Source: Bacillota bacterium
GTDB taxonomy: Bacteria; Bacillota; Clostridia; UBA1381; UMGS1253
Assembly: GCA_022706785.1 (NCBI GenBank)
Contig: JAKJBW010000007.1
Coordinates: forward strand, 25,599 to 89,598
DNA: 64,000 nucleotides
Direction of reading: 5' to 3'
Under the pieces are notes generated by a model, which saw nothing but the letters and a program-made list of their open reading frames with translations, was not told the DNA's origin and ran no database searches. A program made the position numbers and the translations under genes. Positions 14,095-51,955 of this stretch are shown here, piece after piece; positions within the stretch are counted from its first letter, which is position 1, and every line of letters begins with the position of its first letter.

Positions 14095-14260
14095 TTTTAT
14101 ACTAATCTCCAATAGAAATCACAATATCTTTCCGGGCCTTTTTGCACCGGGCGGTGTTCTCCTCTTTAGCGGACGACGGCCCGCCTGCATGGTCAGCCTT
14201 GCCCGGCTGGAAAAATCCTCGGAAATCTTATCGCACTTTCTATTGGAGATTAGTATAAAA
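14095..14260. repeat. Perfect 24-bp inverted repeat flanking a GC-rich 118-bp core
   Basis: ttttatactaatctccaatagaaa at 14095-14118; its exact reverse complement at 14237-14260. Confidence 0.9.
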
Positions 14261-24987: not shown

Positions 24988-25074
24988 GGAGAGGTGTCCG
25001 AGTGGTTTAAGGAGCTGGTCTTGAAAACCAGTGACTCGAAAGAGCCAAGAGTTCGAATCTCTTCCTCTCCGCCA
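24988..25074 (+). tRNA. tRNA-Ser (anticodon TGA)
   Basis: GGAGAGG / CCTCTCC acceptor, loop CT-TGA-AA, long variable arm, GTTCGAATC, encoded CCA. Confidence 0.9.
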
Positions 25075-25101: not shown

Positions 25102-25193
25102 GGAGAAGTACTCAAGTAGGTCGAAGAGGTGCCCCTGCTAAGGGTATAGGTCGTGAAAGCGGCGCGAGGGTTCGAATCCCTCCTTCTCCGCCA
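25102..25193 (+). tRNA. tRNA-Ser (anticodon GCT)
   Basis: GGAGAAG / CTTCTCC acceptor, loop CT-GCT-AA, long variable arm, GGTTCGAATCC, encoded CCA. Confidence 0.9.
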
Positions 25194-25498
25194 AAGAAAC
25201 TAACAGAATTTAGTACAAAAATAGCTGCTTAAAATAAGCGGCTATTTTTGTGTATTTCCATATATTTACAAGGGATTTGTGGGTTCGCATACGCTGCGTG
25301 TTACCGCTGGTCGGCGCGGTAAATTGATATAAAAATAAGGCGCGATACATATTCCGCTATTTTTATTTGAACCCCACAGGACATATTGCAATAAAGGAAA
25401 ATATTACCGTTAAAAAGCATAAGTTAGCGTTAAAATGTATGAACCCCACAAATCAGCCCCGCGCTTTGGCGGGGCTGGTTTTCATTTTCGGGCGGCTA

Positions 25499-26080
25499 TT
25501 ATTCGGCTACGAAGCCTCGCTCCGCCAGTGCGTCTATCAATTCTTGATTGCTCTCGCCTGTAAGCGTTCCGTTGCGGTCTATGAGGTAGTTTCCGATTGC
25601 GTAAACGTATGTCGGTGCGCCTTTATATACGGGTTTCTCGCCTATTATTTTACCTATTGCCGTAACTAATGCTTTGCGCTGGTCGCCGGTTACGTTGTAC
25701 GCTATTTCTACATTGCCGCTTTCGGCGAGCTGCTCTTGGTCTGCGTTTACCGGGGCAGCTATATTTACTATTACCGCCGGAAATGCTGGCTTTTCTTCTT
25801 CGCTTTCCGCCGCGGCTTTCGCCGCCGCCTTTTCCGCCCGTGTCATTTTGGGGCGTATGTCCGGGAAAACCTCCGGCAGTATGCCTTTTTCAAAAAATAG
25901 CTGAAAGCTGATTTTTCCGTCCTCGGGTACGTCGAATTTGAAGTCTGTAATTTCTAATTCCTTCAGCGCGTCCGGGATGTCAATGTTTTTGTACTGCTTT
26001 ACTTCATCGTTCCCTACCATAAACCTTACCGGAACCGCGTCCCTCAATTTTGCTGTGATTTTTCCTGCTTTCATAGTCAT
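25499..26080 (-). CDS. Hypothetical island protein (193 aa)
   Basis: Long ORF with an Ala/Glu-rich linker; hairpin terminator at 25457-25481 just downstream. No motif recognised. Confidence 0.5.
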   Translation of the reverse strand: MTMKAGKITAKLRDAVPVRFMVGNDEVKQYKNIDIPDALKELEITDFKFDVPEDGKISFQLFFEKGILPEVFPDIRPKMTRAEKAAAKAAAESEEEKPAFPAVIVNIAAPVNADQEQLAESGNVEIAYNVTGDQRKALVTAIGKIIGEKPVYKGAPTYVYAIGNYLIDRNGTLTGESNQELIDALAERGFVAE

Positions 26081-26572
26081 TGTTTTTTCCTACCTTTCAA
26101 AAATTTATTTTTTTGTTGACTTGCTTTGTGTGCCACAGCTTACTCTGGAAATGCTTATAAAGCAAGGCTTTTTATAATTTTCTTTGCATAAAATAAGACA
26201 AAAAAGCTGCTTACTTCTTGTATGAAGTCAACAGCTTTTCAATATTAAAAATATTTTTAATTTTCGCTTGCAATCCCACGGAAATTATTGTAACATCCCG
26301 ACAACGGGATTTTCTCGGAAAATAAAAAGCGTCATGGCAGGCGGGTATGCAGCGAACATAACCGCCCTGCGCGAAAGGTGAACAGACCACCTCTGCACAA
26401 CTTAAAAAGCACCATGACTTTAATATTATACATCCGCTGAGAAATATTTTCAAGTCATTTATACAAATGTGTGCGAGGGTCGGAGGTCGTTTATGCGACC
26501 TTACCTTTGTACGCATTTTTGTATATACGGGAATTTCCCGACATATTAAAATTTGTCGGGAGGTAGTAAAAA

Positions 26573-27250
26573 GTGAACATTTTTGAAAATGCGGGCGCGT
26601 TTCTCGGTGAAATTCGCCTGGAGAGCTTGGGAAATGCTCTGACGGAATTTTACGGGGCGGTGGCTGATGTTAAAGGGAGGCTCGGTCATAGCGGGCGGTT
26701 ATTGGATGAATACTTAGAACTTGTATTCGGGGCTATCCATGAGGTTAGCACGGAAACATCCGCAACGGACGGGTATTCTTCCTGTATGCCGGAGTTAAAA
26801 AGAATGTGCGGCTCGATTGTGCGGGGCGAGAGTGGGTACGAAAACCACCCTCTATACGAGCAAACAAAGCAGTATATTGATTTGCACCCGCTTCCGCACC
26901 TCGAACGCTTGCACAAAATCGAAGTGTACGCCGGGGTTTTAATGGGGGATTACAGTAAATATGCAATAGAAAAATATTACAACAAATACAACGGTAGGCT
27001 GGCGGACAGCGGGTATATTTCCGAATTGAATCCGTTATATAACGATATTTGCGGCATACTTGGGTCGGAGGACGCTATGGAGCGGTTAAATATGATAATT
27101 AAACGAAGTTTTTTAATCACCCCTGTTATGCACTCTTTTTTACAGGCTGTAATTGATAATATGCTTGAAATGCTGTCGTTTAAGGTGCCGGAAACCGCGA
27201 AACATGTCTTTGAATTAGTGCCGTGTATGGAGGGACGTGATGAAAACTGA
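26573..27250 (+). CDS. Hypothetical island protein (225 aa)
   Basis: GTG start with GGGAGG SD. The 14-nt overlap with the next ORF suggests translational coupling. Confidence 0.5.
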   Translation: MNIFENAGAFLGEIRLESLGNALTEFYGAVADVKGRLGHSGRLLDEYLELVFGAIHEVSTETSATDGYSSCMPELKRMCGSIVRGESGYENHPLYEQTKQYIDLHPLPHLERLHKIEVYAGVLMGDYSKYAIEKYYNKYNGRLADSGYISELNPLYNDICGILGSEDAMERLNMIIKRSFLITPVMHSFLQAVIDNMLEMLSFKVPETAKHVFELVPCMEGRDEN

Positions 27251-27641
27251 ATATTTGTCAATGAAACATATTGAGATACTTTTCAAATGTTACTATTTGA
27301 AAAGCTACACGAGGGTCGCCGACGCCGAAAATATTATGCCGGGTAAAGTAAAGCAAATAAAAGAAAACGCCCTTCGCATTATCCGGCTGTCATATAGTCA
27401 ATCTCATATGAAGGGGTTACGGTTTGACGGTGAAAATATCTTAAATTATATGGCGGAACGCGCGGGCATGGAAAAAACGGCTCTATTTTCGATTTTTGAA
27501 GGATATATATCCGAGGGGTTGTCATCAGACAATAAGAAATATTGGGCGAGAATTAAGAGTAAAGAGCCTATTCCCTCGCCCGCTGAACTATTAGATTTTA
27601 TATATGATAAATACGAGATTGAGATTGAAGGTTTTATTTGA
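27237..27641 (+). CDS. Small protein with a sigma-70 region-4-like HTH
   Basis: 134 aa. YTRVADAENIMPGKVKQIKENALRIIR resembles a region-4 HTH. Confidence 0.4.
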   Translation: MMKTEYLSMKHIEILFKCYYLKSYTRVADAENIMPGKVKQIKENALRIIRLSYSQSHMKGLRFDGENILNYMAERAGMEKTALFSIFEGYISEGLSSDNKKYWARIKSKEPIPSPAELLDFIYDKYEIEIEGFI

Positions 27642-27812
27642 CGGGATAATATGGAGGTATATATTGCGTATGCGCGTTAAAACGCCTCTATTTTGGACGA
27701 ACATCATCCGCATATGGAGGAATATGGAAACTGACTATACAATGCCTTAAACGGCAAATATGAGCCTCATACGACGAATGTGGAAAAGCGTCTGTGCTGG
27801 GTGGTGATAGCT

Positions 27813-27981
27813 TTTGACGGAATTACGGAATTGACGGGTTTCTGTATTTCTTTACATATAGACCAGTAGAGGAACAATAGAAAAACCATAAGCAAAAAAA
27901 CTTTGTTTTTTTGCTTATTTGCTTATATAAAAAAGATAAATATATGTACTCGTCAAATCCGTCAAGCCGTCAAATTCGGCG
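27813..27981. repeat. Iteron-like repeat unit 1 (TTGACGG motifs in inverted arrangement)
   Basis: Left arm is tttgacggaattacggaattgacggg...tttacatatagaccagt. Right arm is tatataaaaaagataaatatatgtactcgtcaaatccgtcaagccgtcaaattcggcg. Confidence 0.85.
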
Positions 27982-28180
27982 GGATAAAAAACGAGTGTGA
28001 ATTTACAATAAGATGATTGTTTAAGGGTTGCTTATTTGCTAAGAAGTGTGCTAAAATGGTATTATGTGGAAACGTGATTAATGCTGGATTGTTCTTTGTC
28101 CTGAAAAAATTTATAGTTCGTCGTCAGAAAATCATGAGGAACACGGTAAACACCGTATGTTGGTTACTGCTATAAAAGTA

Positions 28181-28327
28181 TTTGACGGAATTACGGAATT
28201 GACAGGTTTCCGTATTTCTTTACATATAGACCAGTGCGGGGATAGGTAAGGGGTTTATGTGTATACGACTATATAAAAAAGATAAATATATGTACTCGTC
28301 AATTCCGTCAAGCCGTCAAATCCGGCG
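28181..28327. repeat. Iteron-like repeat unit 2
   Basis: The 55-nt left arm matches unit 1 at 53/55. The right arm is near-identical. The central roughly 35-55 nt differs. Confidence 0.85.
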
Positions 28328-28456
28328 AAACGAAAAACAAGGCGCAAAGCTACGGAAAATCAGGGTTACAAGCATATAGATAACGGAAAGGCGAAGCCTA
28401 CAGGGAAATAAGGCGGCGGGGACAAAAACAAATTTTATCTTATGGAGGTTTTGTAT

Positions 28457-28861
28457 ATGCACATAGCATTGGCTTATCTTGACAAAAGAACAGCGACGGT
28501 ATCCGCGATAAAAGATTACACGAGTATGGAGTTTATAATTAACAACACGCCGGATGAGGCGAAGCTGGCACCACAGATTGGCGAGATGGACATCCGCAAG
28601 GAATGCTACCGGCGTGCTTTGGAGTACATGGAGTGGTTTCTTCCTGCATGGGATACGCTCACCGATGACGAGCGGTTTGTCCTTTCGGAGTTTTACCGCG
28701 AGGACGGGGCACAGCGCGGGGACGCTATTGATAACATCCGCGACCGCTTCTATATTGAGAGTACATCCGCCTATAAAAAGAAAAACCGCGCTTTGGCAAA
28801 ATTAACAACTTTGCTATACGGAAAAATAAAAGTGTCCAAAAGTGGAGGGTACTTTTTATAA
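28457..28861 (+). CDS. Phage-type sigma-like transcriptional activator (RinA/ArpU-style, region-4 HTH)
   Basis: Start moved to ATG 28457 because GGAGG at 28444-28448 is its SD. LTDDERFVLSEFY ... ESTSAYKKKNRALAKLTTLLYG. Confidence 0.5.
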   Translation: MHIALAYLDKRTATVSAIKDYTSMEFIINNTPDEAKLAPQIGEMDIRKECYRRALEYMEWFLPAWDTLTDDERFVLSEFYREDGAQRGDAIDNIRDRFYIESTSAYKKKNRALAKLTTLLYGKIKVSKSGGYFL

Positions 28862-29621
28862 AAAGTATGATATAATGTTACTGTGCGAAAAATGAAAAGT
28901 GTCCAAAATCGCGGACGATTTTTCGCATTGGATGTGATACACTGTTATTATCGAAAAGTGCGAAGATGAGATTTTTACGAGATGAACATAATACGTTCTC
29001 GTGTTATACTTGTATCATCAAAAAATACACAAGCAAAAAAGTCTTTGAAGCAGGCGCCTGCCAAAGGCTTTTTTTGTTTGCTTTATATAAATAAAATTTT
29101 TTGCTGGGAAAGGAGGGATAAAATCTCTACAAACCGCTCGACGTTCTACCGGCGCCCCCCTTCGCGTGAAAAATCGCGTTTTCAAATAGGGTATAGGGTG
29201 CGAAAAATGCGCTCATAACTTGTCGTTGCGCGGCGTTTGTGGTGTTTTTCGCGAAATATCCCTCCCCCCTGTGGATAAATCAAATAACAATCAAATGAAG
29301 TGTCCACGCGGAGGAGCTTTAGGCTTGGCAGAGGAAAAAACTTGTTCTGGTGTGTTTGTAAAAAGGTGTAATCTTACGGCTATGCCTTTTGAAAGATGGG
29401 GGTTTTATGGGGGTATTTTTGCTCTAAGGTGTGTTATAATGTTATCATCTGAAAATATCAAAACGGGAGCCTTCGGCGCGGAGGCTCCTTTTTCGTGCTT
29501 ATTTTACGAGGGGGGGACAATATGCAAGAGTTAAAGATATATGCCTATGGAGCAGGACAGGTGTTTGGATGAAATGAAATCAAATCATATAAAAAATAAA
29601 TTTTAAGGAGGATTTATCACT

Positions 29622-30875
29622 ATGAAAAACAAAAAATTACTTGCTATGATGGCAAAACGAAACGAACTGAAAACACAGGCACAGAGACTGCTTGACGCGG
29701 CACAAAAAGTGGGACGCCCGCTCACTAACGCAGAGCGCGAAACGCTGGAGGGGCTGAAAGTTAAAATCGAGCAATGGGACGACACTATCAAGGAAATGGT
29801 AACTCTTTGGGAGGATGGCACACCGAGCGGCGCGCCAAATGGTGGTAACTCCCGTAAATTCACCAGCTTTGGCGAACAACTCCACGCGATATATAACGCC
29901 GCCAAGCCGGAGCGTTCCGCAATGGACGCGCGGTTGTTTAACGGGGCGAGCGGCGCGGGCGAAAGTGTTCCTTCGGACGGTGGGTTTTTAGTGCAGAGCG
30001 ATTTTGCGGCAGGACTTTTAAAGCTAACGTATGAAACAGGAATACTCGCGGCGAGATGTAAAAAAATACCGATTTCAAGCGGCGCGAATGGAGTAAAAAT
30101 CAACGCGCTGGACGACGACTCCCGCGACAACGGGGCAAGGTGGGGCGGCATACAAGCCTTTTGGACTGGCGAGGCGGACGAGTTGACTGCCTCAAAGCCG
30201 AAATTCCGTCGAATGGAATTAACGCTGAAAAAGCTAGCAGGCTTATGCTACACCACCGATGAACTTTTAAGCGACACGATGGCGCTTGAAAGTGTAATCG
30301 CGCAGGGCTTTGCCGAGGAATTTGGGTTCAAAATGGACGACGTTATACTGAACGGCACGGGGACGAACCAGCCGCTCGGCATTCTCAAAAGTAACGGTCT
30401 GGTAACGGTGGCGAAAGAAACCGACCAAGCGGACAAAATCACAGTTGATAATATAACAAAAATGTGGGCGCGATGCTGGGGACGGAGCCGTAACAATTCG
30501 GCGTGGTACATAAACCAAGAATTAGAACCGTACCTTTATGCGCTAAAAATCGGCGACGCGCCCGTGTATATTCCCGCAGGCGGGCTTTCCGCGTCGCCGT
30601 ACGGCTCAATATTTGGTCGCCCAGTAATTCCGATTGAGCAATGCCCGGGGGTGGGCGAGAAGGGCGATATTATCCTTGCCGACTTGTCGCAATATCTACT
30701 TGTTGACAAGGGCGGAATTAACGCTGCGTCGTCAATTCACGTTAGGTTTTTGTATGACGAAAACGTGTTTAGATTTACCTATCGCGTGGATGGTCAGCCG
30801 ATTTGGAACGCACCTATCACTCCGTACAAGGGCGCGGGTACATTGTCGCCGTTTGTAACGCTGGCGGCAAGGTAG
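29622..30875 (+). CDS. Phage major capsid protein, HK97 family
   Basis: 417 aa. AAGGAGG SD. N-terminal coiled-coil delta-like region (LTNAERETLEGLKVKIEQW). Typical HK97-family body (GGFLVQSDFA, LAGLCYTTDELL, TNQPLGIL). Confidence 0.8.
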   Translation: MKNKKLLAMMAKRNELKTQAQRLLDAAQKVGRPLTNAERETLEGLKVKIEQWDDTIKEMVTLWEDGTPSGAPNGGNSRKFTSFGEQLHAIYNAAKPERSAMDARLFNGASGAGESVPSDGGFLVQSDFAAGLLKLTYETGILAARCKKIPISSGANGVKINALDDDSRDNGARWGGIQAFWTGEADELTASKPKFRRMELTLKKLAGLCYTTDELLSDTMALESVIAQGFAEEFGFKMDDVILNGTGTNQPLGILKSNGLVTVAKETDQADKITVDNITKMWARCWGRSRNNSAWYINQELEPYLYALKIGDAPVYIPAGGLSASPYGSIFGRPVIPIEQCPGVGEKGDIILADLSQYLLVDKGGINAASSIHVRFLYDENVFRFTYRVDGQPIWNAPITPYKGAGTLSPFVTLAAR

Positions 30876-31041
30876 AATTATGGCTGAAAAAGCTGGCGGA
30901 GGACAGCAACGCCTACTGGCTCGCGTGGAAAACCGTGGTGTTTTTGCGGAGTAAGGGCGTATAAATTTTTCTAAACAATCACAATGTCCCCTTGATGTAA
31001 TATAGTGACAATGCTAACATCAACGGCGAAAGGAGCGGATT

Positions 31042-31455
31042 ATGATGAACGATAAACAAAAAGCTACAATTTATGAATTAAGACAGCAGGGATTGGTGTA
31101 TAGGCGAATAGCGGCGCGGCTTGGTATATCCGCGAATACGGTAAAAGGGTTTATTTATCGTAAGGGAATTACTTCGCAAGCTGCTGCAAAGACAAAATCG
31201 GAGGGTTGCTGCCCGCAATGTGGCGCGGATATATCTCTTGTAAAAGAGCGCAAGAGCCGGAAATTCTGTTCCGACGCCTGCCGCCATGCTTGGTGGAAAG
31301 CGCACGAGCATATAATAGACCGCCGCGCTTGGTATTCCTGTGTTTGCGCCGGGTGCGGTAAGGCTTTCAAAAGTTACGGCAACAACAAACGAAAATACTG
31401 CGATCACGCTTGCTATATTTCCGATCGCTATAAAAAGGAGGTTGTGGCACAATGA
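31042..31455 (+). CDS. Sigma-region-4-like HTH protein with a C-terminal Cys-rich zinc-ribbon region
   Basis: 137 aa. IYELRQQGLVYRRIAARLGISANTVKGFIYRK, then CPQCG...CSDAC...CAGCG...CDHAC. Confidence 0.55.
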   Translation: MMNDKQKATIYELRQQGLVYRRIAARLGISANTVKGFIYRKGITSQAAAKTKSEGCCPQCGADISLVKERKSRKFCSDACRHAWWKAHEHIIDRRAWYSCVCAGCGKAFKSYGNNKRKYCDHACYISDRYKKEVVAQ

Positions 31456-31604
31456 CCGAGGCGCATTTTGACCGCGAGGCGTCCTTTCGGGTGGCGATTA
31501 TCGCCGCTCGTGAAATGTTAAAAAACAACGTAATATCTGCCGCCGATTATTCAAAAATCGCGGCTTTTTTTATGAAAAAATATAAACCTTTTTTCGTGGA
31601 ATAA
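31452..31604 (+). CDS. Small hypothetical protein (50 aa)
   Basis: ATGA overlap with the preceding stop. MTEAHFDREASFRVAIIAAREMLKNNVISAADYSKIAAFF... Not in the ORF track (under 60 aa). Confidence 0.35.
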   Translation: MTEAHFDREASFRVAIIAAREMLKNNVISAADYSKIAAFFMKKYKPFFVE

Positions 31605-31676
31605 TGCTGAAAAACCTTGATTTCCACAGTGTTTGAGAGTAAGCTGTCAACACTAAGGAAGGGGGTGTTTAGCAAT

Positions 31677-32990
31677 ATGGAACGAATAATAACGCAAGTA
31701 ACGCCGCAGGCAATACACCTTGCGGCACCACAATCAAAGCGTGTAGCCGCCTATGCGAGAGTATCGAGCGGCAAGGACGCAATGCTGCACAGCCTGTCGG
31801 CACAAGTAAGCCATTACAGCGGATATATCCAAAGGCAACGCGGCTGGCAGTATGTGGGCGTATATGTGGATGAAGCCGTTACCGGGACAAAGGATTCACG
31901 GGCGGGATTCAAAGAAATGATCGGGGATTGCCGTGCCGGGAAGGTTGATATGATTATAACCAAATCAATCACACGCTTTGCGCGAAATACGGTTACTCTT
32001 TTGAATACCGTCCGCGAATTAAAGCTGCTGGGAATTGACATATTTTTTGAAAAAGAAAATATCCACTCAATGAGCGGGGATGGTGAGATTATGCTTACCA
32101 TCCTCGCTTCATACGCGCAGGAAGAAAGCCGGAGCGTTTCGGAAAATTGCAAATGGCGCATAAGAAAACGGTTTGAAAAAGGCGAGCTTGTGAACTTGCG
32201 GTTTTTGTATGGTTACGATATTAAAAAGAGCGTAATCGAAATTGACCCGGAGCAGGCGGAAATCGTCCGCGTGATTTTTGACGACTATATCGGCGGCATG
32301 GGCGGAGTGTTAATTGCACAAAAGCTAAATGAGGCGGGTATTCCGTCATTTTTCGGCGCACGCTGGAGCGCATCCCGTATTCTTGACATTATCAAAAACG
32401 AGAAGTACATCGGCGATTCGCTGGGACAAAAATCCTTTGTTGCCGACCACTTGACAAAGAAAACCGTCCGTAATATTGGGCAATTACCGCAATATTACGC
32501 CGAGAATGTACTCCCTGCCATTATCGACGCGGCGACCTTCGAGGCGGCGCAGGACGTTATGGCGGGGCGGCGGGAGCATTTCAACGCCAAAGACACCAGC
32601 GCGAACCGTTACCCGCTCACGGGGAAAATCCTGTGCGGGAATTGCGGAAAAAAATTCAAGCGCAAAAAAGGCGTCGGGTGTTTCTATTGGCAATGTTCCA
32701 CCTTTTTACAGGATGGCAAGGCGTACTGCCCCGCCAAGCAAATACCCGAAGGGACGCTGTACGCGGCAACTGCCGAGGCATTAGGACTGGCGGAATTTGA
32801 CGCGGCTGTATTTGCGGAGCATATCGCGGAAATACGGGTGCCGGAGCATAACAAGCTGGTATTTGTATTTTATGACGGACGGACGTTGGAGCGCGAATGG
32901 CAAGACCGCTCCCGGCGCGAAAGCTGGACGGAGAAAATGCGGCAAGCTGCGCGGGAACACGCGCTCAGAGGACAAAGAAAATTAGATTAG
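31677..32990 (+). CDS. Large serine recombinase 1
   Basis: Start at ATG 31677 (AAGGAAGGGGG SD). VAAYARVSSGKD catalytic-Ser motif, ITKSITRFARNT, recombinase domain, Cys4 zinc ribbon CGNCGKKF...CSTF. Confidence 0.85.
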   Translation: MERIITQVTPQAIHLAAPQSKRVAAYARVSSGKDAMLHSLSAQVSHYSGYIQRQRGWQYVGVYVDEAVTGTKDSRAGFKEMIGDCRAGKVDMIITKSITRFARNTVTLLNTVRELKLLGIDIFFEKENIHSMSGDGEIMLTILASYAQEESRSVSENCKWRIRKRFEKGELVNLRFLYGYDIKKSVIEIDPEQAEIVRVIFDDYIGGMGGVLIAQKLNEAGIPSFFGARWSASRILDIIKNEKYIGDSLGQKSFVADHLTKKTVRNIGQLPQYYAENVLPAIIDAATFEAAQDVMAGRREHFNAKDTSANRYPLTGKILCGNCGKKFKRKKGVGCFYWQCSTFLQDGKAYCPAKQIPEGTLYAATAEALGLAEFDAAVFAEHIAEIRVPEHNKLVFVFYDGRTLEREWQDRSRRESWTEKMRQAAREHALRGQRKLD

Positions 32991-33003
32991 GGGGTTTTGA
33001 CTT

Positions 33004-34614
33004 ATGCCAGCAAAAACGGCAACAATAGAAAAACGGGTACGGTATATTCCCGCCGTGGATAATCTCGCGCGGGTGCCGTTCAGTACGGAGTACGTCAAAA
33101 GACGCACGGCTGCTTATGCCCGCGTATCTACCGACGAGGAAGAACAGCTAAACAGCTATGAGGCGCAAGTTCAGTATTATACTGAATATATACAGTCAAA
33201 CGACGAATGGGAATTTGCGGGTATGTACGCGGATAAAGACCGCTCCGGCACCACAACTAAACGCCGGGATGATTTTAACCGTATGATAAAGGACGCGCAG
33301 GAGGGCAAAATTGATTTTATTATTACAAAGTCCGTTTCCCGGTTTGCCCGGAATACGGTTGACACTTTAACGACGGTGCGGCAATTAAAGGAAAAAGGCG
33401 TCGAGGTGTATTTTGAAAAAGAGAATATTTACACGCTGGATAGTAAGGGCGAGCTTCTTATAACTATTATGTCGAGCCTCGCCCAAGAGGAAAGCCGCTC
33501 CATATCCGAAAATGTGACGTGGGGGCAGCGTAAGCGCATGGCGGACGGAAAAGTGAGCCTGCCTTACAAACAATTCCTCGGATATGAAAAGGGCAAGGAC
33601 GGTTTGCCGAAAATTGTGGACGCCGAAGCGAAAATAGTGCGGCGCATTTACCGCCTGTTTCTATACGGCAAAGCCCCTGCTACAATCGCCGCCTTACTAA
33701 CGGTGGACGGCATACCTACTCCGTCCGGCAAGCAGGAATGGCGGGCGCAGACGGTTATTAGTATTCTTACAAACGAGAAATACAAGGGCGACGCGCTATT
33801 GCAGAAAAGCTACACGGTGGATTTCCTTACCAAGAAAAAGAAGGTAAACGAGGGCGAGGTTCCGCAATACTACGTCGAACAAAGCCATCCCGCTATTATC
33901 GAGCGGGAAATATTTGACCTCGTACAACAAGAATGGAAACAGCGCAAAGCGTCCGGCAAACAGTCAAGCTCGGTTCATCCATTTTCGGGTAGAATATTCT
34001 GCGGCGACTGCGGCGACGGGTACGGCTCTAAAATATGGCACAGTAACAGCAAATACCGCCGCGAGGTGTGGTCTTGCAACGGCAAGCACTATGGCGGCAA
34101 AAAGTGCCAAACACCACGCCTAACCAACGAAGAAATACAAACGGCGTTCGTAAACGCCTTTAACGGCTTGATAGACCACAAAACCGAGATAATGAAAGCA
34201 TACGGGGAAATATGCGGCATATTGACCGACACCGCCGCTATTGACGCCGAACGCGAGGAATTGCAGCGGGAATGCGACGTTGTAATGGAATTACTCCGAA
34301 AATGTATTGAAGAAAACGCGCATACCTCGCTTAATCAGGACGAATACCGCCAGCGGTACGAGGGTTATACGGCGCGGTTTGAAACCGCCCGGAACAAGCT
34401 GGTGGAGCTTGACGCCGAACGGCTGGCGCGTATCGCCAAACGCGCAAATATCACGCTGTTTTTGGAAACGCTGGAACAGCGCGACGGGCTTATATCCGCC
34501 TTTGACGAGGAACTATGGTACATTACCGTGGAAAATGTAAAGGTGTACGACGGTAAGCGGCTGATATTTACCTTCAAGAACGGCGTAACGGTGGAAGTAC
34601 CCTCTACGAAGTAA
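33004..34614 (+). CDS. Large serine recombinase 2
   Basis: 536 aa. AAYARVSTDEEEQ, ITKSVSRFARNT, zinc ribbon CGDCGDGY...CNGKH, C-terminal coiled coil. Confidence 0.9.
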   Translation: MPAKTATIEKRVRYIPAVDNLARVPFSTEYVKRRTAAYARVSTDEEEQLNSYEAQVQYYTEYIQSNDEWEFAGMYADKDRSGTTTKRRDDFNRMIKDAQEGKIDFIITKSVSRFARNTVDTLTTVRQLKEKGVEVYFEKENIYTLDSKGELLITIMSSLAQEESRSISENVTWGQRKRMADGKVSLPYKQFLGYEKGKDGLPKIVDAEAKIVRRIYRLFLYGKAPATIAALLTVDGIPTPSGKQEWRAQTVISILTNEKYKGDALLQKSYTVDFLTKKKKVNEGEVPQYYVEQSHPAIIEREIFDLVQQEWKQRKASGKQSSSVHPFSGRIFCGDCGDGYGSKIWHSNSKYRREVWSCNGKHYGGKKCQTPRLTNEEIQTAFVNAFNGLIDHKTEIMKAYGEICGILTDTAAIDAEREELQRECDVVMELLRKCIEENAHTSLNQDEYRQRYEGYTARFETARNKLVELDAERLARIAKRANITLFLETLEQRDGLISAFDEELWYITVENVKVYDGKRLIFTFKNGVTVEVPSTK

Positions 34615-34623
34615 CCTCATATT

Positions 34624-34667
34624 CCCGCCCGTGGGTTCGTCCGAGCCTGCGGGCTTATTTTTGTTTT
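34624..34667 (+). terminator. Terminator after the recombinase genes
   Basis: cccgc...gcggg hairpin followed by CTTATTTTTGTTTT. Confidence 0.5.
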
Positions 34668-34705
34668 GGGGCTTAAGTGTTTTAAGGAAATTATTACAAA
34701 AAACA

Positions 34706-34734
34706 TTGAAAATTGCATAAATATGTGTTATAAT
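34706..34734 (+). promoter_or_regulatory. Strong sigma-A promoter heading the RT cassette
   Basis: TTGAAA, 17 nt, TGtTATAAT (extended -10). Confidence 0.55.
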
Positions 34735-34948
34735 AATTTTACCAGTGTAGAAATAGTCAGATTCACTCCCATTTGGCTCACATTTATTGTGGGCGGCGTT
34801 GTGCCTCAAGGCATGAACGCATTTTTCTCCGGCGCACGCTCTCTCATGTTGTTTTAACACTTGCTAACACTAACGTGTTATGCAGTAGTGATGACAGTGT
34901 GATGATGTGTATGTGTATAAGATAAATCAATTTTATCGGGAGTTAGAT

Positions 34949-35256
34949 TGTGCTGGTGTTATCGGTATACGGCTATTATCTCTTTGTTATTAGAGGGTGC
35001 GGGAGACCCTCGACCGTTTTGGTTAGGGGCCAATAATAACAAGGAGGTGAAAACATCGTGAAGAAAGCGGATAGGCCTAATGTTACCATTAATATTTTTA
35101 ATGGTAACAAGATTTCTCTTGATGGCAAGTCATTGCTGCTAATTATAGTAGTAATTGTATGCCTAACACTGGTTGTATCGTTACGTAGTCCCGAACTGCA
35201 AGCTAATGTTGTCCGCTGGTTAATTAGCTTAGCAGAGAACTACTAACACCAGCACA
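34949..35256 (+). ncRNA. Candidate retron msr-msd-like structured RNA closed by a1/a2-like inverted repeats
   Basis: 13-bp perfect IR: tgtgctggtgtta at 34949-34961 and taacaccagcaca at 35244-35256. Several internal hairpins. Lies directly upstream of the RT. Boundaries are inferred. Confidence 0.4.
35058..35246 (+). CDS. 62-aa predicted single-pass membrane peptide; may instead be non-coding
   Basis: AAGGAGGTGA SD 7 nt before GTG. Hydrophobic core LLLIIVVIVCLTLVV. However, it lies wholly inside the a1/a2 bracket and contains a perfect 12-bp hairpin. Confidence 0.4.
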   Translation: MKKADRPNVTINIFNGNKISLDGKSLLLIIVVIVCLTLVVSLRSPELQANVVRWLISLAENY

Positions 35257-35280
35257 CTAAAATAATGAGGTGTATGCCTT

Positions 35281-36240
35281 TTGATATATAATAATTGTAA
35301 GCTATATCAGTTACAATCAAAAAGAGTATTGAAATATCTGTTGGGGATTACGGATACAAAAATGTTTAATCAAGCATACGTGGCGTCTTTAATAAAGCCT
35401 TATATTGACTCCAACGGAAAGCCGCGTATTATTGAACCACCTTCTTATGGGTTAAAACAAATACAGGCACGAATCAAAAAACTTCTTTATGCGGTTGTGG
35501 TACCAGAAAATGTGTTTTCCGGTATTAAAGGCAGATCATATGCCCAAAACGCAGAAATTCACAAAGGAAATAACTATACATATAAAATAGATTTAACAGC
35601 TTTCTTTCCGAGTATTTCACGAGAAAAAGTTTATGCCTTTTTCAAAAATGAAATGCAAACCGCTCCAGACATAGCGGAGTTTTTGACGAATGTTACAACG
35701 GTAAACATAGATTTATCTGACGTTCAAAACATAGATGATATAAATAAATTTCTTGCAGATAAGAAAATTAAAACTCGCAACCACCTCATATCGGGTTCAC
35801 CGACAAGTCAAATATTATCATATATGGTCAATCATAAGATGTTTAATGAACTTCAAGATTTGGCAAGTAAGAATCAAGCTGTTATGACAATATATGTGGA
35901 TGATGTGGTGTTCTCTTCTAAAAACAAAATATCCAGTGACTTTAAATATGCCATTAACGCAATTGTTAAAAAACATGAGTATAAAATATCAAAGCATAAG
36001 GTTAAAGGGTATTCCAAAAATTATCCTAAACTGATAACAGGGGCAATTATTGATAAAAATGGAAATATGAGAGTCAAAAACTCATTAAGATATAAAATTA
36101 TTATGGCATTTAACGAATCTTTAAAAAATCCTGATGATCTAGAAATTAGAAAACGACTAAGAGGACTTGTTACAGCAGCAAGGCAGGTTGAGCCAAATGC
36201 ATATCCAGAGATACGAAAATATGCATTTAAAAAATTATAA
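35281..36240 (+). CDS. Retron-type reverse transcriptase
   Basis: 319 aa. TTG start with GAGGTG SD 8 nt upstream. PRIIEPPSYGLKQIQ, GRSYAQNAEIH (NAxxH), IDLTAFFPSI, ISGSPTSQILS, IYVDDVVFS (YxDD), LITGAII (xTG). Confidence 0.8.
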   Translation: MIYNNCKLYQLQSKRVLKYLLGITDTKMFNQAYVASLIKPYIDSNGKPRIIEPPSYGLKQIQARIKKLLYAVVVPENVFSGIKGRSYAQNAEIHKGNNYTYKIDLTAFFPSISREKVYAFFKNEMQTAPDIAEFLTNVTTVNIDLSDVQNIDDINKFLADKKIKTRNHLISGSPTSQILSYMVNHKMFNELQDLASKNQAVMTIYVDDVVFSSKNKISSDFKYAINAIVKKHEYKISKHKVKGYSKNYPKLITGAIIDKNGNMRVKNSLRYKIIMAFNESLKNPDDLEIRKRLRGLVTAARQVEPNAYPEIRKYAFKKL

Positions 36241-36313
36241 ATACAGCAGTTATTTTTTAATATGTAACGCTCTTTGTTGTATGCAGTAATTTTTTTTTGG
36301 GGGGGGTGATGCA

Positions 36314-36895
36314 ATGGAAAAAGGGGATAATCGCGCAAGGTTCAATGAAGTAAGGAAAATGCTTTTTGCAGAGAATATTGATACCAAAAAACCTTGTATA
36401 TTTCTGTCACATAGGAGTTTAGATAAAGAAATGGTAAGAACAATAGCGGATTATATTGCCGAGCAAGGTATAGATTATTATTTAGACGAGGAAGATCCTG
36501 CCCTACAAGAAGCCGATAAAAATGAGGATGACCAAGCAACTGTTGATTGTATAAAAGAAGGCATTGGATTATCTTCGCACATATTATGTGTTTTATCTTA
36601 TAATACAGTCAGTTCCTGGTGGGTTCCTTTTGAAGTGGGATATGCAGATTGTTTAAAAAAGAAAGTGGCATCTTTAAAAATAAAAGATTTATCTGATAAA
36701 GAGATACCTGCATTTCTGAGAATCTATGAATGCCTTGCCGGAATTAAAGAGTTTAACAAATACCTTGTAGGAATATCAGATCCATACGGTGGACTTTTCT
36801 CAAAGTACAATAAGCAACAGAATGGAACGACTTCTCCTTCTGTTGAGATAGCATACACTCAAAATCACCCACTATATGATACGCTTGATGAATAG
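36314..36895 (+). CDS. TIR-like (TIR/NDT-superfamily) effector protein
   Basis: 193 aa. CIFLSHRSLDKEMVRTIADYIAEQGIDYYLDE and ILCVLSYNTVSSWWVPFEVGYA match the TIR_2-style pattern (FxSH..D ... S.W...E). Assigned from motifs only. Confidence 0.6.
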   Translation: MEKGDNRARFNEVRKMLFAENIDTKKPCIFLSHRSLDKEMVRTIADYIAEQGIDYYLDEEDPALQEADKNEDDQATVDCIKEGIGLSSHILCVLSYNTVSSWWVPFEVGYADCLKKKVASLKIKDLSDKEIPAFLRIYECLAGIKEFNKYLVGISDPYGGLFSKYNKQQNGTTSPSVEIAYTQNHPLYDTLDE

Positions 36896-36938
36896 GTATA
36901 ATTAAATTAGTCTTCATCTATTTATATTACCGGGGAAA

Positions 36939-37379
36939 ATGACTATGAGTGACTATATCGAAAAAGGGAAGCAAATTATGAACGATTTTACTAAAACATC
37001 AAGTTTTACACGCAAATTGGTATGTGTCAATATTGTATCGTCTGATCCAAAACGGCTCGCCGATTTCTACCGAAACGTTTTAGGTGCAGACATCAACGAG
37101 GAACATGGTGCTCCGCGCCGCATTGAAATATGGTTCGGAGAAAGAGACGAAAACACCGTTTGTATTGTTGTAAATTATGAAGAAGGATTTACGCCGCAGA
37201 CCGTTACCGCCTGTCAGGGATTTGAGTTTCGCGTGACAGACGTTGACGCGGAATACAAACGGATACGAGATTTGGATATTGATGTAAAAGAACCGCCAAA
37301 AGATGTATCTTGGGGTTATCGTTTTTTCAATATCAAAGATCCGGACGGTAACGGTATTGATATTGTTCAAGCTTTATAA
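36939..37379 (+). CDS. VOC-family (glyoxalase / bleomycin-resistance-like) protein
   Basis: 146 aa. LADFYRNVLGA ... FEFRVTDVDAEYKRI ... GYRFFNIKDPDGNGIDIVQ. Confidence 0.7.
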   Translation: MTMSDYIEKGKQIMNDFTKTSSFTRKLVCVNIVSSDPKRLADFYRNVLGADINEEHGAPRRIEIWFGERDENTVCIVVNYEEGFTPQTVTACQGFEFRVTDVDAEYKRIRDLDIDVKEPPKDVSWGYRFFNIKDPDGNGIDIVQAL

Positions 37380-37497
37380 GGGCATATAGGAAGTATAAGC
37401 ATTTTTCTATATTCCCGTTAAAAAGTGTACCCCCTAACACAACGAAATGCACCCCATAAAAGAAAAATACACCCCATAATAAAAACTTTTCGCGTTA

Positions 37498-37526
37498 TTG
37501 ACTTTCTCGTTAAATTGTATTAAAAT
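37498..37526 (+). promoter_or_regulatory. Promoter-like element (TTGACT, 17 nt, TAAAAT)
   Basis: Good -35 and -10 spacing. The only downstream element is the hairpin terminator about 25 nt later. Confidence 0.4.
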
Positions 37527-42140: not shown

Positions 42141-42182
42141 AAACAGACAGTCCGTTTTATCGGGACTGTCTGTTTTGTTTTG
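42141..42182 (+). terminator. gdhA intrinsic terminator
   Basis: aaacagacagtcc / ggactgtctgttt 13-bp stem followed by TGTTTTG. Confidence 0.7.
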
Positions 42183-42243
42183 TGCGAAGCATTCGGTATT
42201 TCATCAAATCACTTAAAAAACAGATTCGGTTTTTGAGGTGAAC

Positions 42244-42300
42244 AACGGCTGGTATTTGAACATTTTTTTGGAATGCTCAAATACCAGCCGTTATTTTTAC
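42244..42300 (+). terminator. Second hairpin with T-tract (16-bp perfect stem)
   Basis: aacggctggtatttga / tcaaataccagccgtt followed by ATTTTTAC. Confidence 0.5.
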
Positions 42301-42450
42301 GGTGAAACCCTTATAATTAAGGGCTTTACCGTTATGATGTATTTCATATGTAATTGGTGAACAGAATAATTCCATCACAGCATTGTGATACGGCCTCCCT
42401 GAAAGAGAAAAAAGGATTGTGCGGCATGTAACATTTTGGGCAGATTCTGA

Positions 42451-42495
42451 AAACCTCCAAATCAGTGTCGTTATTTGACGCCGATTTGGAGGTTT
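42451..42495 (-). terminator. Terminator of the protease operon
   Basis: aaacctccaaatc / gatttggaggttt. On the minus strand it is followed by TTTTC. Confidence 0.6.
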
Positions 42496-42558
42496 CAGGA
42501 ATATACTCAGTTTATAACTTAATTATTGCATCTTGGCCCTGTTGTCGCTTTCAAAGGA

Positions 42559-45500
42559 TCAGGGCGCTATCAATACCTGGCAGCAGATGAAATCGTCAAA
42601 GTAGTGCGTGCCTCCCCACGAGTCTTTCACAACAAACCTTAAGATATTATTATCTCCGCTGTTGAAGGCAAACGTATACTCCTTCCATTCGTCAGGACTC
42701 CAGCTTGTCGGACCGCAGTCCTTTATTAGCACGCCATCTGTAGTATATATATAGAAATTAGCGGGGATATAGCCCGATTTTCCATATACTCTCCATATAT
42801 AGTCGGTATGCGGGAGTAAATACGCATCCTGCCTGAGCCCGGTCCAGCCTGAATTGCCTGTCAGCTTGGCCGAATAGAAACCCCAAAGATGCTTCTGTTC
42901 GGTTGTCACACTAAACACATCCGATGCGGTCCATGCTGAAAAATCACCTGTTTCAAAACTGTGATTGGCAATCTGAGACGAGAGACGGAAGTGCACAACA
43001 TATGTATTCACCTTGACGCCGTCCTGCGCTGTTACTGTTATTGTTATTGTACCGTTGCCTGATGATACGTCCACCACTCCGTTGGCGGGCATCATCTGTA
43101 CTGTCGCGTTTGGATCCGACTTTATTGCTTCTACCGTTACTGTAGTGGTGAGACCCGACACCTCTGTTATGCGTGTTTCGCCTTGGTTCTCTTCCCCAAA
43201 CCATTCCTGATTCAGCTCCGTTAAACCTGCCGTCTGAAAAACAATTGAGGACAATCTGGCGTCATCCGACAGCGGCGGCGGCTCCGGCGCGCCGGCAATG
43301 CGCAGGTCAGAATCGTCTATGTAGTGCGTCCGTCCGGGATAAGAATCTGAGATGGACGGGACAAGCTGGCTGTAGCTTCCGCTGTTGAAGTTAAGCGTAT
43401 ACTGTGTCCAGACAAAGCCACCCGTGTTATTGACAAAGCCTGAGCCCGGCAGGATGCCGCCGCCGTCAGCCGCAGTTCGCAAAATTCTCATCCGTGCACC
43501 GTTGGCAGCGCTGGATTTCATCCACACTGTCCAGGTGTAGTCTGTATAGGGTATTACATTAACAGTCTGGCCAAGGTAAGTCCAACTGCCGCTGCTGGTC
43601 AGTACAACAGAAAGCATACCCGAATGCGCCTGTTGGGATGTTAAACTGAAATGATCCTGAGGGCTGATCCACGGTGTAAACACGCCTGTTTCAAATCCGG
43701 GATTTGCAAGCAGGTTGTTTGCTACCAGGAATTTGATGGTGTATGTATTTAATGTGATGCCATCCTCGGCCCTGACGACGACTGTTGCTGTGCCGCTTCC
43801 TGACGATAGATCAAGCGTGCCGTTTTCGGGTGTCATCTGTACTGTCGCGTTTGGATCCGCCGCGGTTGCGCCCACATTTACCGAAGTCGCGCCTTCCCAC
43901 AGCTTGACTGTATAGGTGCCGCCTTCATCCGTTGCCGAAAACCCTGTAACCGCTGCGGTCGAGCCATAGCCTGACTGGTATGTCAGTGCTGACAGCTTCG
44001 CGTCGCGGGACAGCGGCTCCGGCGTAGGCCAGTCTTTGAGACGCAGGTCAAAGTCATCGATATAATGCGTGCGGTTCTTTTGCGAATCCGACACAGAGAG
44101 GGTAAGCTCGGTGCAGCTTCCGCTGTTAAAATTAATGGTGTATGGCGTCCATACATTGCCGCCTACGTTATCCACAGCGGTAGTTCCGGGGAGCATACCG
44201 CCGCCTTGAGCTGCGGTTCGAAGCACCCTGAGCCTGGCTCCGCTTGCGCCGCTGGATTTCATGTATACCGTCCAGGTATAATCCGTATTTGGGATGACAT
44301 TGACCACCTGTCCCAAATAGCCCCAGCTGGCGGTTCCCGCAAGCTTGACCGAGTGCGTACCGGAACGCTTCTGCTCTGTTGTCACGCTGAATTGCGGCTG
44401 GTTGAAGGTCCACGGAGAAGAATCTTCTTTTTCAAAACCGGGATTTTTAAGAAGATTGCCCCCGACGCAAACGGTACATGAGGTGGTATAACCGCCCACT
44501 GCCGTTGTTGCGGTGATGGTGGCTTGCCCCGGGGAAACGGCTGTAACATTTCCGGTAGAATCTACTGCAGCTACGGCAGGATCGCTCGAACTCCAGTAAA
44601 TTAATTTATCCTCGTCGGGAACATTACTAGGTATGACAGAGGCGGATAATGCAACAGAGTCGCCTATATTCGGAAGATCCACATATTCATAAACAGGCGT
44701 AATGCCTGTAACCGAATATTCAAGCGCAAGAGATGGATCCCCATAAATGTTATACATTAACATCATAGCCCATGGGAAATCGCCGTTACACGCAAACTTA
44801 CCATATCCTCTGTATGCATTATTTAATGAATCACCCGTAGTCAGCCCATCAAGTATAAGATTTTTAGAGTAGTCATATAGTAACCAGTTATTAAATAGAG
44901 ACCAGCTAATTCTTGTGGCGCCTAAAGTGTTGATAGCGCCGCTTAATAAAAGTTTATAAGCTAAATTATCTGTAGCCTCCGGATAAGCAGTCCAACAACT
45001 GGCTTGGAATGTAAAGCTGTACCAGTCATCCAACGTGCTTGCTGTAGTAATATCCATTATATCGGAAGCCCCTTGAGGCCAGCCATGTGTCGACCAAGCC
45101 ACAAGCCCTGGGGATATGCCGTTCCATTGATCTCTCACATTTGTCTGGGTACATGGCACTGTAATATTAGTATTTGGGTCATTTGGAACATAACTGTCAT
45201 ATACACGTTGATAACCATATCCGGCTGGTATTAAAATATCATTTTTTACTTCTTCCAAAGTCGTATATCCTACATCAGTCGGAGTTATTGGTTTGCCAGC
45301 GAGTAAAACGTCCTTAGAAGGAGTGATCGTCCCAGCATCTATAGTCTTTTGCAAAATTACATCGAGATCATTCATGGTTCCATAATATGGAATTCGCCCG
45401 ACTGTTAATTCTCCATAGCAATCCGCTCCACCATCCCCATAATCATCTTCATATTCACCAAATTTGCCATCAGCATCCACATCCCAATTACCGCTCATTT

Positions 45501-46608: not shown

Positions 46609-46671
46609 TTTTGATCATTCCTTTCATTGTTGTATTTAATTGACAGGCTCACAGCTTATCCAAGCTGCCGC

Positions 46672-50706: not shown

Positions 50707-51734
50707 GCTGCTTCCTCCTTTTGTTGTTTTTTTAAAATTAAATGAAAGTTGAGGACACTTCAGCATTTCGGGTACGATATTTCTGCGATAAAATCAAGCG
50801 CCTCTCGCAAGAGGAAACGGCCTCATACAGAAAACGGTATCCGTTGTATGCCAAAAGCGCAACAACAGTCATTTAGTTTTATCATTGAAATGGAGATTCT
50901 GATAGGAATAAAAATCTTTGCCGGAGCTGTTGTCTTGAATTTGCACCCGACCGCCCAAGGCAAGCCTTTTGCGTCGTGATGGCGGGGACTATTCAAACTG
51001 CTATTTGCAATAAAAAATGCAGTCATGCATTTTTTGCCTTTAAAAGCACCATAATAACCACACCCTTCCTGTCGGCACTGTGGGGTAGACACGGTTTTAA
51101 GCGAATGCATTACCTGCTTATTTCATTATTGTTAAATTGCCCATGCTCTGGGTTAGTAAAAAAGTAATTCATAACAGTGGAAAGCTTCAAAAACGATACT
51201 TTCAAAAATTGGATTGAGTCTTTGACAAGCAATTTAAGACGTGATACAAAACCAAACAGGGCTTTTTTCCTTTGCGTTAGTAAATAAGCGCATTTCTCTG
51301 TTCGTGTTTTTTTTTGACTATATCAGACCGTATCGCGTGCTTTATGGGTTGACGTCTGCCCGGATGGCCGGTTTGACTTGTCAGGCAAAAGCGGGAGTAT
51401 TTGCCCATTTTGTAAAGCAACTATACGATTTTAAGTACTTTTTCCAGTTTTATTTTACGGATTCTGGAGTTTGCTGTAGGATTTTGCTAATTATAGGTAT
51501 AATATAGTTCCGAAAGATATTTTTGTCAATTGTTTTCGGGCGCAGGTTTTCTTATTTTTCGACATCCCTTGGCGCTGTCTGAACACATGAGCAGAAAAAT
51601 ATGAAACAGGGTATTGGTAAATGCTTAGTCAAGGGCAAATAAAAGCGGTTGAAGGATTAACTGAAAATATTACTGCTTCGCCACGGAAAAAAAGGCGCTG
51701 CTTTTGATCACGCTAACTATTTTACACAAAAAAC

Positions 51735-51762: not shown

Positions 51763-51784
51763 AGAGTTGTATATGATATACCCA

Positions 51785-51955
51785 TGTAAAAGGCAAAGCA
51801 TATGAAAGTATGTGACGCAAAGCTATAGGGCCTAAAGATGATGAATCTATGGCAGCCAGTTGCCGGCTAATAAGAAGTGCTGACAGGATAGCTGTATCCT
51901 TATGCCTGTTATTAAAGGACAACTGATTTGTTTCGGTTGTCCTTTTTGTTTTTCA
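51785..51955 (+). promoter_or_regulatory. c-di-GMP-I (GEMM-I) riboswitch with a terminator expression platform
   Basis: aGGCAAAGCatatGAAAgtatGtGACGCAAAGCtatagGGCCTAAAg parallels the Vc2 aptamer segments GGCAAACC-(GNRA hairpin)-GGGACGCAAAGCC-..GGCCTAAAC. Terminator aaaggacaac / gttgtccttt plus TTGTTTTT at 51915-51953. Confidence 0.7.

Follow-up and report, generated by a model that had tools for sequence, protein, structure and literature searches.

A perfect 13-bp inverted repeat spans positions 34949 to 35256 of a 64,000-nucleotide stretch of DNA from a clostridial Bacillota bacterium (contig JAKJBW010000007.1), referred to here as the window, and lies directly upstream of a retron reverse transcriptase (RT) gene. 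Comparative sequence analysis indicates that the repeat genuinely forms a long-range RNA helix, conserved beside the RT. It probably serves as the outer closure of the half of a retron ‘hybrid RNA’ that carries the effector, on the scheme of Retron-Vpa2. The other helices of this RNA, its open reading frame (ORF), its promoter and the concerted evolution of two direct repeats are likewise supported by the comparison of homologous loci. All coordinates are positions within the 64-kb window, and the features of the element lie on the plus strand unless stated otherwise.

Type VI was the only retron type without a recognisable non-coding RNA (ncRNA) until preprints of 2025-26. Retron-Vpa2, a Vibrio parahaemolyticus retron of type VI, produces a hybrid RNA of ~470 nt that joins an msr-msd arm to an arm coding for the small protein SP (Zhang et al., bioRxiv 10.1101/2025.10.22.683967). 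A stem-loop arm sequesters the ribosome binding site (RBS) together with the start codon, the 3′ end of the hybrid RNA pairs back via inverted repeats ‘resembling a1/a2’, and the RT gene follows downstream (Zhang et al.). The reverse-transcribed product (msDNA) builds up only after triggering, and SP translation is not derepressed without it; the proposed mediator of derepression is a direct repeat of 7 nt with copies in both the msd and the riboregulator loop (Zhang et al.). The locus described here is similar in its msr-msd 5′ arm, RBS-sequestering stem-loop, SP arm, 3′ pair-back, direct repeats and downstream RT.

The arms of the repeat, TGTGCTGGTGTTA (34949-34961) and TAACACCAGCACA (35244-35256), are perfectly complementary and are separated by 282 nt. 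TCGG directly follows the left arm on its 3′ side, and 10 nt lie between the right arm and the Shine-Dalgarno (SD) sequence of the RT, GAGGTG (35267-72), all as an earlier note on this DNA had described. Only two perfect inverted repeats of at least 13 bp with arms more than 100 nt apart occur in the 64-kb window. When RNA 34940-35265 is folded, the predicted structure reaches -112 kcal/mol (z = -6.4) and is closed by the repeat, whose helix has an ensemble probability of 0.95 in the window and a mean of 0.67 over 53 loci.

Homologous loci provide further evidence that the repeat is functional. Homologues of the RT number 482 at E below 1e-10. Scanning one genome for each species yielded 65 loci, mostly from metagenome-assembled genomes of Oscillospiraceae, Ruminococcaceae and other Clostridia, with a few from Bacilli, Bacteroidota and Fibrobacterota. 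The repeat is conserved at the same place in ~60 RT-homologous loci, and its arms covary. Nearly every locus of the 65-locus set has a perfect inverted repeat of 9-14 bp with matching geometry, the left arm lying ~330-375 nt upstream of the RT start and the right arm ~35-44 nt upstream of it. The commonest arm sequence is TGTGCTGGTG(T); in the variants TGTACTGGTG, TGCGCTGGTGT, TGTGCTGAGG and TGTGCTGGCG the opposite arm carries the complementary change each time. Two distant clades, with RTs ~40% identical, have unrelated arms (GTAAGATGCTT and AATTGTTAATTAT) at the same position. In an alignment of 53 sequences, 94.7% of the cells of the repeat helix are paired and 7 of its 11 pairs show compensatory change, a level that none of 500 shuffles attains, while slid registers yield 0-3 compensatory pairs. 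G.U pairs are tolerated in the helix across loci, which argues that the repeat functions as plus-strand RNA. The claim that the repeat exceeds chance thus holds on its fold z-score, its recurrence in ~60 loci and its compensatory changes.

A role as a recombinase att site or as transposon ends was considered and rejected, as the repeat is kept in loci without recombinases; the tolerance of G.U pairs on one strand and the failure to find flanking direct repeats also count against it. Rfam has no significant family at the locus, the malK-I match (E = 0.049) falling far below the threshold of that family.

The earlier note went further and likened the repeat to the a1/a2 pairing that closes the msr-msd. 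In the full form of this model, the repeat is the duplex that primes reverse transcription, the 308-nt interior is the msr-msd, the branching G lies in TCGG and the 3′ part of the enclosed ORF is copied into msDNA. Such a model is very unlikely. The repeat is indeed perfect, conserved and directly upstream of the RT, and the Vpa2 authors likewise describe such repeats as a1/a2-like. However, TCGG is not a free branch site, being base-paired in a covarying helix with the ORF, and the interior consists of a hairpin that sequesters an SD and a conserved protein-coding ORF. Upstream, at 34741-34950, lie the canonical msr and msd features, closed by a covarying helix of their own whose a1-like and a2-like strands are 34758-70 and 34938-50. 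In Vpa2, moreover, RT-dependent DNA mapped to the first arm only. The length of the bracket and its translatable ORF, which the earlier note had flagged as unusual for a retron, both fit the published architecture of type VI hybrid RNAs.

The region 34741-34950 has the retron ncRNA anatomy regarded as standard by Mestre et al. (2020; PMC7736814), with a1/a2, msr-like stem-loops and an msd-like hairpin, so the msr-msd-like unit lies upstream of the reported bracket. Conservation extends beyond the left arm, conserved blocks at 34741-34840 and 34936-34961 flanking a variable stretch. On its own, 34741-34961 folds (z = -3.8) into terminal closing helices, a pair of short stem-loops, a long hairpin and a small one; the full-length fold (z = -6.1) has a two-domain architecture. 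All loci tested share the plan of the upstream domain, even those of the two distant clades, whose sequences are unrelated. Its closing helix was scored in an anchor-based gapless register, MAFFT columns being unsuitable owing to misplaced indels. The 13 pairs between a1 (34758-70) and a2 (34938-50) are 83% paired, against 31-59% in slid registers, and hold 35 compensatory cells against 15.6 in shuffles (0/500 shuffles as high). The a1-like strand contains the segment X (ACTCCC, 34765-70) and begins with an invariant CAG (34758-60). The a2-like strand (34937-34950) overlaps the left arm at its 3′ end, its last two bases being shared by both.

Just after a1 lies a TGG (34774-34776) that is invariant in 53/53 sequences and is a candidate position for the branching G. 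Two msr-like stem-loops follow, SL-a (34777-82 / 34788-93) and SL-b (34796-805 / 34810-20), with compensatory changes in 15 of 16 pairs. The long imperfect, msd-like hairpin at 34832-34916 appears in minimum free energy structures and is the presumed template for reverse transcription. Varying in sequence and length, it is less conserved than any other block, and in most loci it folds as one hairpin of 30-47 bp with a mean z of -2.1.

Transcription of both halves would begin at a sigma-70-type promoter at 34706-34734 (TTGAAA, a 17-nt spacer with TG, and TATAAT; 11/12 consensus matches), both hexamers of which are conserved across homologous loci. The predicted start is ~34741. The recombinase gene upstream ends in a strong terminator at 34627-54. 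No strong terminator-like site occurs between 34741 and 35256, where the two stems listed (34799-816 and 35081-109) are weak and have 3 G-C pairs apiece.

Inside the bracket, consensus pairs were obtained from RNAalifold and pair counting. Beyond the repeat helix, 56 further consensus pairs are 95.2% paired, 37 of them (246 cells) with compensatory change (0/500 shuffles as high). Directly within the repeat, a long-range helix joins 34963-34973 to 35171-35180 inside the ORF; it is 97.7% paired and shows compensatory change in 6 of 10 pairs (e.g. GC25/AU15/UA4 and UA31/GC15), and it is to this helix that TCGG belongs. Next comes the riboregulator hairpin (34980-35046, stem 34980-92 / 35034-46), in which the anti-SD strand CTCTTTGTTATTA pairs with TAATAACAAGGAG, burying the 5′ half of the SD of SP (98.3% paired). 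The two distant clades also show a comparable pairing of anti-SD and SD. All the inner hairpins listed in the earlier note exist in the window, but the gagggt/accctc stem is replaced in the comparative data by an inner stem of CCTC/GGGG pairs (35008-11 / 35026-29). Covarying helices also make up a 3′ stem domain within the coding region (35185-35243), at 35185-88 / 35240-43, 35198-99 / 35232-33 and 35203-07 / 35223-27.

The SP ORF (35058-35246) starts with GTG, encodes 62 amino acids, is preceded by the SD AAGGAGGTG (35041-35049), of which GGAGG is invariant across loci, and is annotated as a gene by NCBI. It is conserved in all loci, with SD and start kept and indels in-frame only, and occupies the position equivalent to that of SP in type VI retrons. 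Its stop codon TAA forms the first three bases of the right arm. In 63/63 scorable loci from three clades, the SP stop begins between -4 and +1 nt from the right arm. The C-terminus of the protein is conserved as ..CCPELLADFVRWII.. in most loci and reads SPELQANVVRWLI in the window. Residues 24-42 form a predicted transmembrane helix (Kyte-Doolittle hydropathy 2.8 over 19 residues) and are followed by a predicted amphipathic helix. By analogy, SP is presumed to be a membrane toxin or toxic effector. In the distant RT clades (L060-L065 and L058-L059), the same repeat-closed position holds small proteins unrelated to the SP of the window (e.g. MVSKIVKFVEEHKYLVILSLGLTF...).

In hok/sok systems, the mRNA of a small hydrophobic toxin is kept inactive by pairing of its 5′ and 3′ ends together with SD sequestration. 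It is thus conceivable that SP belongs to an autonomous type I toxin-like module with a hok-style fold-back mRNA, and that its adjacency to the RT is incidental. A predicted single-pass membrane peptide of 62 amino acids would suit such a module, the fold-back closure and the sequestered SD recall hok mRNA, and weak promoter-like sites exist on the minus strand (35128-35101 and 35062-35033). Nevertheless, this explanation is highly improbable. SP adjoins the RT, at 24-88 nt, in every locus, including those from searches that started with SP, and nothing else is conserved in the neighbourhood. In addition, the left arm is shared with the retron-like domain, and two direct repeats link both halves of the RNA. 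The trigger proposed here also differs from that of hok/sok, being reverse-transcribed DNA and not 3′ trimming, and the module is fused to a retron ncRNA.

The direct repeats are copies of CGGGAG, R1 in a2 (34937-42) and R2 in the internal loop of the riboregulator (35000-05). Across the lineage the repeat measures 6-10 nt and co-evolves between the 3′ flank of the ncRNA and the riboregulator loop. For instance, matching changes in both copies give GGGATGTC in L008, TTGGAGGTC in L054, and TAGGGAGA in L047, L050 and L052. Within a locus, R1 and R2 share a longest common substring of 8.4 on average, compared with 6.85 +/- 0.18 after permutation of loci (0/2000 permutations as high). Such concerted evolution fits the proposed derepression by msDNA. 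Two other pairings were tried and set aside. Pairing of msDNA with the anti-SD strand, as an ‘anti-anti-SD’, gave a duplex z of -0.07 and no signal, and a conserved alternative in the main clade, in which the left or the right arm would pair with the msd hairpin, gave weak values (z -0.5 and -0.9).

By homology and analogy with the characterised systems, the element is best pictured as a translational switch operated by the RT. The promoter at 34706-34 would drive one structured transcript of ~515 nt in two halves, a retron-type msr-msd domain (34741-34950) and a repeat-closed module (34949-35256) that encodes SP, its RBS locked in the anti-SD hairpin. At rest, the hybrid RNA would hold SP untranslated. 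Upon phage infection, msDNA made by the RT from the upstream hairpin would accumulate, and its 5′ part, complementary to R1, would anneal to the identical R2 in the riboregulator loop and open the hairpin. SP would then be translated and the infected cell killed or arrested, amounting to a putative defence function.

Several observations weigh against this account or set the locus apart from Vpa2. SP has no detectable similarity to any family in the Pfam, PADLOC and NCBIfam searches. Its predicted transmembrane nature is itself a departure from Vpa2. R1 is paired with a1 in the predicted fold, within the a2 strand, whereas the Vpa2 copy lies in the msd loop, and whether R1 is reverse-transcribed depends on the position of priming. 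There are two invariant candidates for the branching G, in CAG 34758-60 (G 34760) and in TGG 34774-76 (34775-76). The host lineage is gut Clostridia, and the RT is only ~30% identical to proteobacterial type VI RTs. Furthermore, the two characterised type VI retrons already differ in mechanism. Their helix-turn-helix (HTH) protein represses reverse transcription in Vpa2 and neutralises SP, as an antitoxin, in Retron-Sen3. The HTH gene that stands between SP and RT in Vpa2 is absent here, so neither published mechanism can apply unchanged.

The left arm has a second, weaker partner that may bear on control without an HTH protein. The 5′-terminal segment ACCAGTGTA (34741-34749) takes the left arm as its partner if only the 5′ domain is folded, while in the full-length fold the left arm pairs with the right arm. 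A possible, though unlikely, explanation of the repeat is that the right arm and the 5′ end compete for the left arm, so that the closed form withholds the full priming duplex, an RNA substitute for the HTH repressor; a ribosome terminating at the stop codon in the right arm would melt the helix and thereby couple SP translation to reverse transcription. The complementarity between 5′ end and left arm is conserved (98.7% of cells paired, against 15-79% in slid registers), the duplex has a mean z of -2.0, and the alternative pairing reaches a probability of 0.3-0.7 in six loci. The absence of the HTH gene and the constant overlap of the SP stop with the right arm agree with such a switch. However, this helix is nearly without compensatory change (one cell only), and shuffling, as a control, does not discriminate. 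In neither of the two distant clades is the left arm paired with the 5′ end, and since the inner a1/a2 helix is compatible with the repeat, priming may dispense with the left arm.

The same competition can be tentatively extended into a loop, which we again regard as doubtful. In such a loop, msDNA would open the riboregulator, terminating ribosomes would melt the repeat, and the freed left arm would complete a1/a2, so that reverse transcription would rise. If the switch were true, a self-amplifying, all-RNA device would join translation to reverse transcription in a two-gene retron consisting of the hybrid RNA and the RT.

The repeat could alternatively act as a long-range intrinsic terminator or attenuator that determines where the hybrid RNA ends and restricts transcription from running on into the RT gene. 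At least 5 T residues occur within 8 nt directly after the right arm in 36 of 65 loci, typically as CACATTTTTT, and RNA-seq coverage in Vpa2 is higher over the hybrid RNA than over the genes downstream. The window, however, has no U-tract after the arm (CTAAAATA), and the helix closes an RNA of ~300 nt, unlike a canonical terminator hairpin. The RT must also still be expressed from the promoter at 34706-34 because no other promoter is conserved. Such a role is accordingly quite unlikely to explain the repeat. Among the homologues, T-runs such as CACATTTTTTAAG follow the right arm in loci ranging from L004 to L065, and L060-65 add a hairpin between the arm and the SD of the RT. Together, the T-run and this hairpin suggest termination or attenuation at the end of the hybrid RNA, which is plausible in these homologues and not in the window.

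The RT gene (35267-36240, including its SD) begins with a TTG codon at 35281, 8 nt after the end of its SD, and encodes 319 amino acids. An ATG at 35274 is out of frame and meets a stop after 5 codons; TTG is taken as the start because homologues align over the whole RT N-terminus. Retron RTs are distinguished by the signatures NAXXH in region X and VTG in region Y in addition to the YXDD catalytic site (Mestre et al., 2020; PMC7736814). The enzyme encoded here has NAEIH, YVDD and ITG (the family consensus being VTG). N90, A91 and H94 are invariant in 33 homologues, as are T253 and G254. In PADLOC, the RT matches RT_VI at 3e-72 over the full model, the next family scoring 7e-37, and the best 25 of the 39 families matched are all retron RT models. 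It also matches Pfam RVT_1 and, below its cut-off, NCBIfam retron_St85_RT (9e-38), and 10/10 matches in the PDB are retron RTs. The locus is therefore a retron, as the earlier note had recognised, and the RT scores best as type VI, both by hidden Markov model scores and by its nearest annotated relatives.

These relatives are 28-36% identical and adjoin HTH_VI genes. In Yersinia phage vB_YenM_56.17, the gene order is SP-HTH-RT and a 9-bp repeat of the same kind is present. A plasmid from S. aureus has the same order, and a Ligilactobacillus plasmid has HTH-RT with no SP ORF of at least 30 amino acids in the 440 nt available upstream. In Burkholderia phage KS5, a transcriptional regulator is annotated beside the RT. 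In the window, by contrast, no ORF near the RT matches HTH_VI or any Pfam HTH family (the Yersinia control scored 6e-36), and neither the window nor 70 related loci gave a tblastn match to any of three HTH_VI proteins. The right arm ends 24 nt before the RT start in the window and 24-88 nt before it across all loci, and the SP stop precedes it by ~34-88 nt in all loci. The lineage thus appears to consist of type VI-like retrons without the usual Cro/C1 HTH gene between SP and RT. Entries without HTH are reported to make up ~22% of type VI RTs. As the HTH is absent, control would have to rest on the RNA and the RT alone.

The ncRNA and SP are the only conserved neighbours of the RT in homologous loci, which are carried by prophages, plasmid-like elements and viral contigs. 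A search of viral contigs that started from SP, using a narrow SP alignment, found SP only with an RT 41 nt downstream. The gene after the RT varies, being a TIR gene in the window, a RhuM-family gene in the closest relative and others elsewhere. In the window, the TIR-domain (ThsB-like) gene (36314-36895; 193 amino acids) begins 74 nt after the RT, and a terminator occurs only at 37545-76. The RT-TIR stretch has a G+C content of 0.33-0.35 against ~0.47-0.50. TIR as a conserved retron effector was rejected, as it is absent beside 65 homologous RTs; outside the window it was found only in a Logan contig, which has the same sequence. The slot after the RT (36314-36895, also 36939-37379) may be a variable cargo position or hold a strain-specific second effector.

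The second characterised type VI retron, Retron-Sen3 (cl2075), has an upstream ncRNA and a second long-range pair of inverted repeats, IR1-IR2, that flanks SP (Garcia-Rodriguez et al., bioRxiv 10.64898/2026.04.27.721009). The present locus is similar in that its upstream ncRNA likewise combines terminal inverted repeats of its own with a long variable stem-loop, the right arm, like IR2, is placed at the SP stop (IR2 lies just after it), covariation occurs within the SP coding region, and alternative conformations share one strand. It differs in three respects. IR1-IR2 lacks statistically significant covariation, whereas 7/11 pairs are compensatory here; IR1 lies within the long stem-loop, whereas the left arm abuts a2 here; and the HTH antitoxin of Sen3 is absent here. 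The L060 clade has ATAATTAAC, nearly a copy of the right arm, at the base of the msd-like hairpin, which recalls the placement of Sen3 IR1 within its long stem-loop. Compared with canonical retrons such as Ec86 (Mestre et al., 2020), the locus shares the plan of the upstream domain and the NAXXH and VTG-type motifs of the RT. The reported repeat is, however, a second helix that encloses coding sequence and not a1/a2, and no effector protein gene is conserved downstream of the RT.

The retron is flanked by two large serine recombinases and a capsid gene upstream and by the TIR-domain gene and a glyoxalase gene downstream. It is located in an island of ~12 kb (~25200-37500) directly after two tRNA genes (24988-25071 and 25102-25190). 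The island also contains several unknown ORFs, a phage capsid-family gene (29622-30875) and the recombinases in tandem (31617-32990 and 33004-34614), and it is flanked by chromosomal genes, PhoH, YbeY, Era and RecO lying upstream. No att-like direct repeats were found for the island, which may be a satellite or an element resembling phage-inducible chromosomal islands. At 27813-28341 it has two tandem modules of ~350 nt (a 55-nt repeat 96% identical and an 88-nt repeat 84% identical) with short GACGGAATT / CCGTCAA iterons, which looks like an island replication origin or a regulatory repeat.

Elsewhere in the window, a perfect 24-bp inverted repeat, TTTTATACTAATCTCCAATAGAAA (14095-14118 / 14237-14260), with a GC-rich spacer of 118 nt, lies between converging ORFs. 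It is the only other long-range perfect repeat in the window and has no Rfam match. A c-di-GMP-I riboswitch (51782-51867; Rfam RF01051, 76 bits, E = 4e-13) precedes an ORF at 52003-53211. On the minus strand, two adjacent, very large ORFs of 1349 and 1364 amino acids occupy 42559-50766, with three strong hairpins just downstream (42141-42509).

For annotation, the locus indicates that long inverted repeats beside a retron RT should not be taken as the limits of the msr-msd. The concerted evolution of R1 and R2 offers independent comparative support for the msDNA-riboregulator hypothesis put forward for Vpa2. The locus represents a large, unstudied lineage in gut anaerobes. As only the hybrid RNA and the RT are conserved in it, these retrons would constitute a natural minimal system for studying how translation of a toxin could be switched on by reverse-transcribed DNA without an HTH protein.

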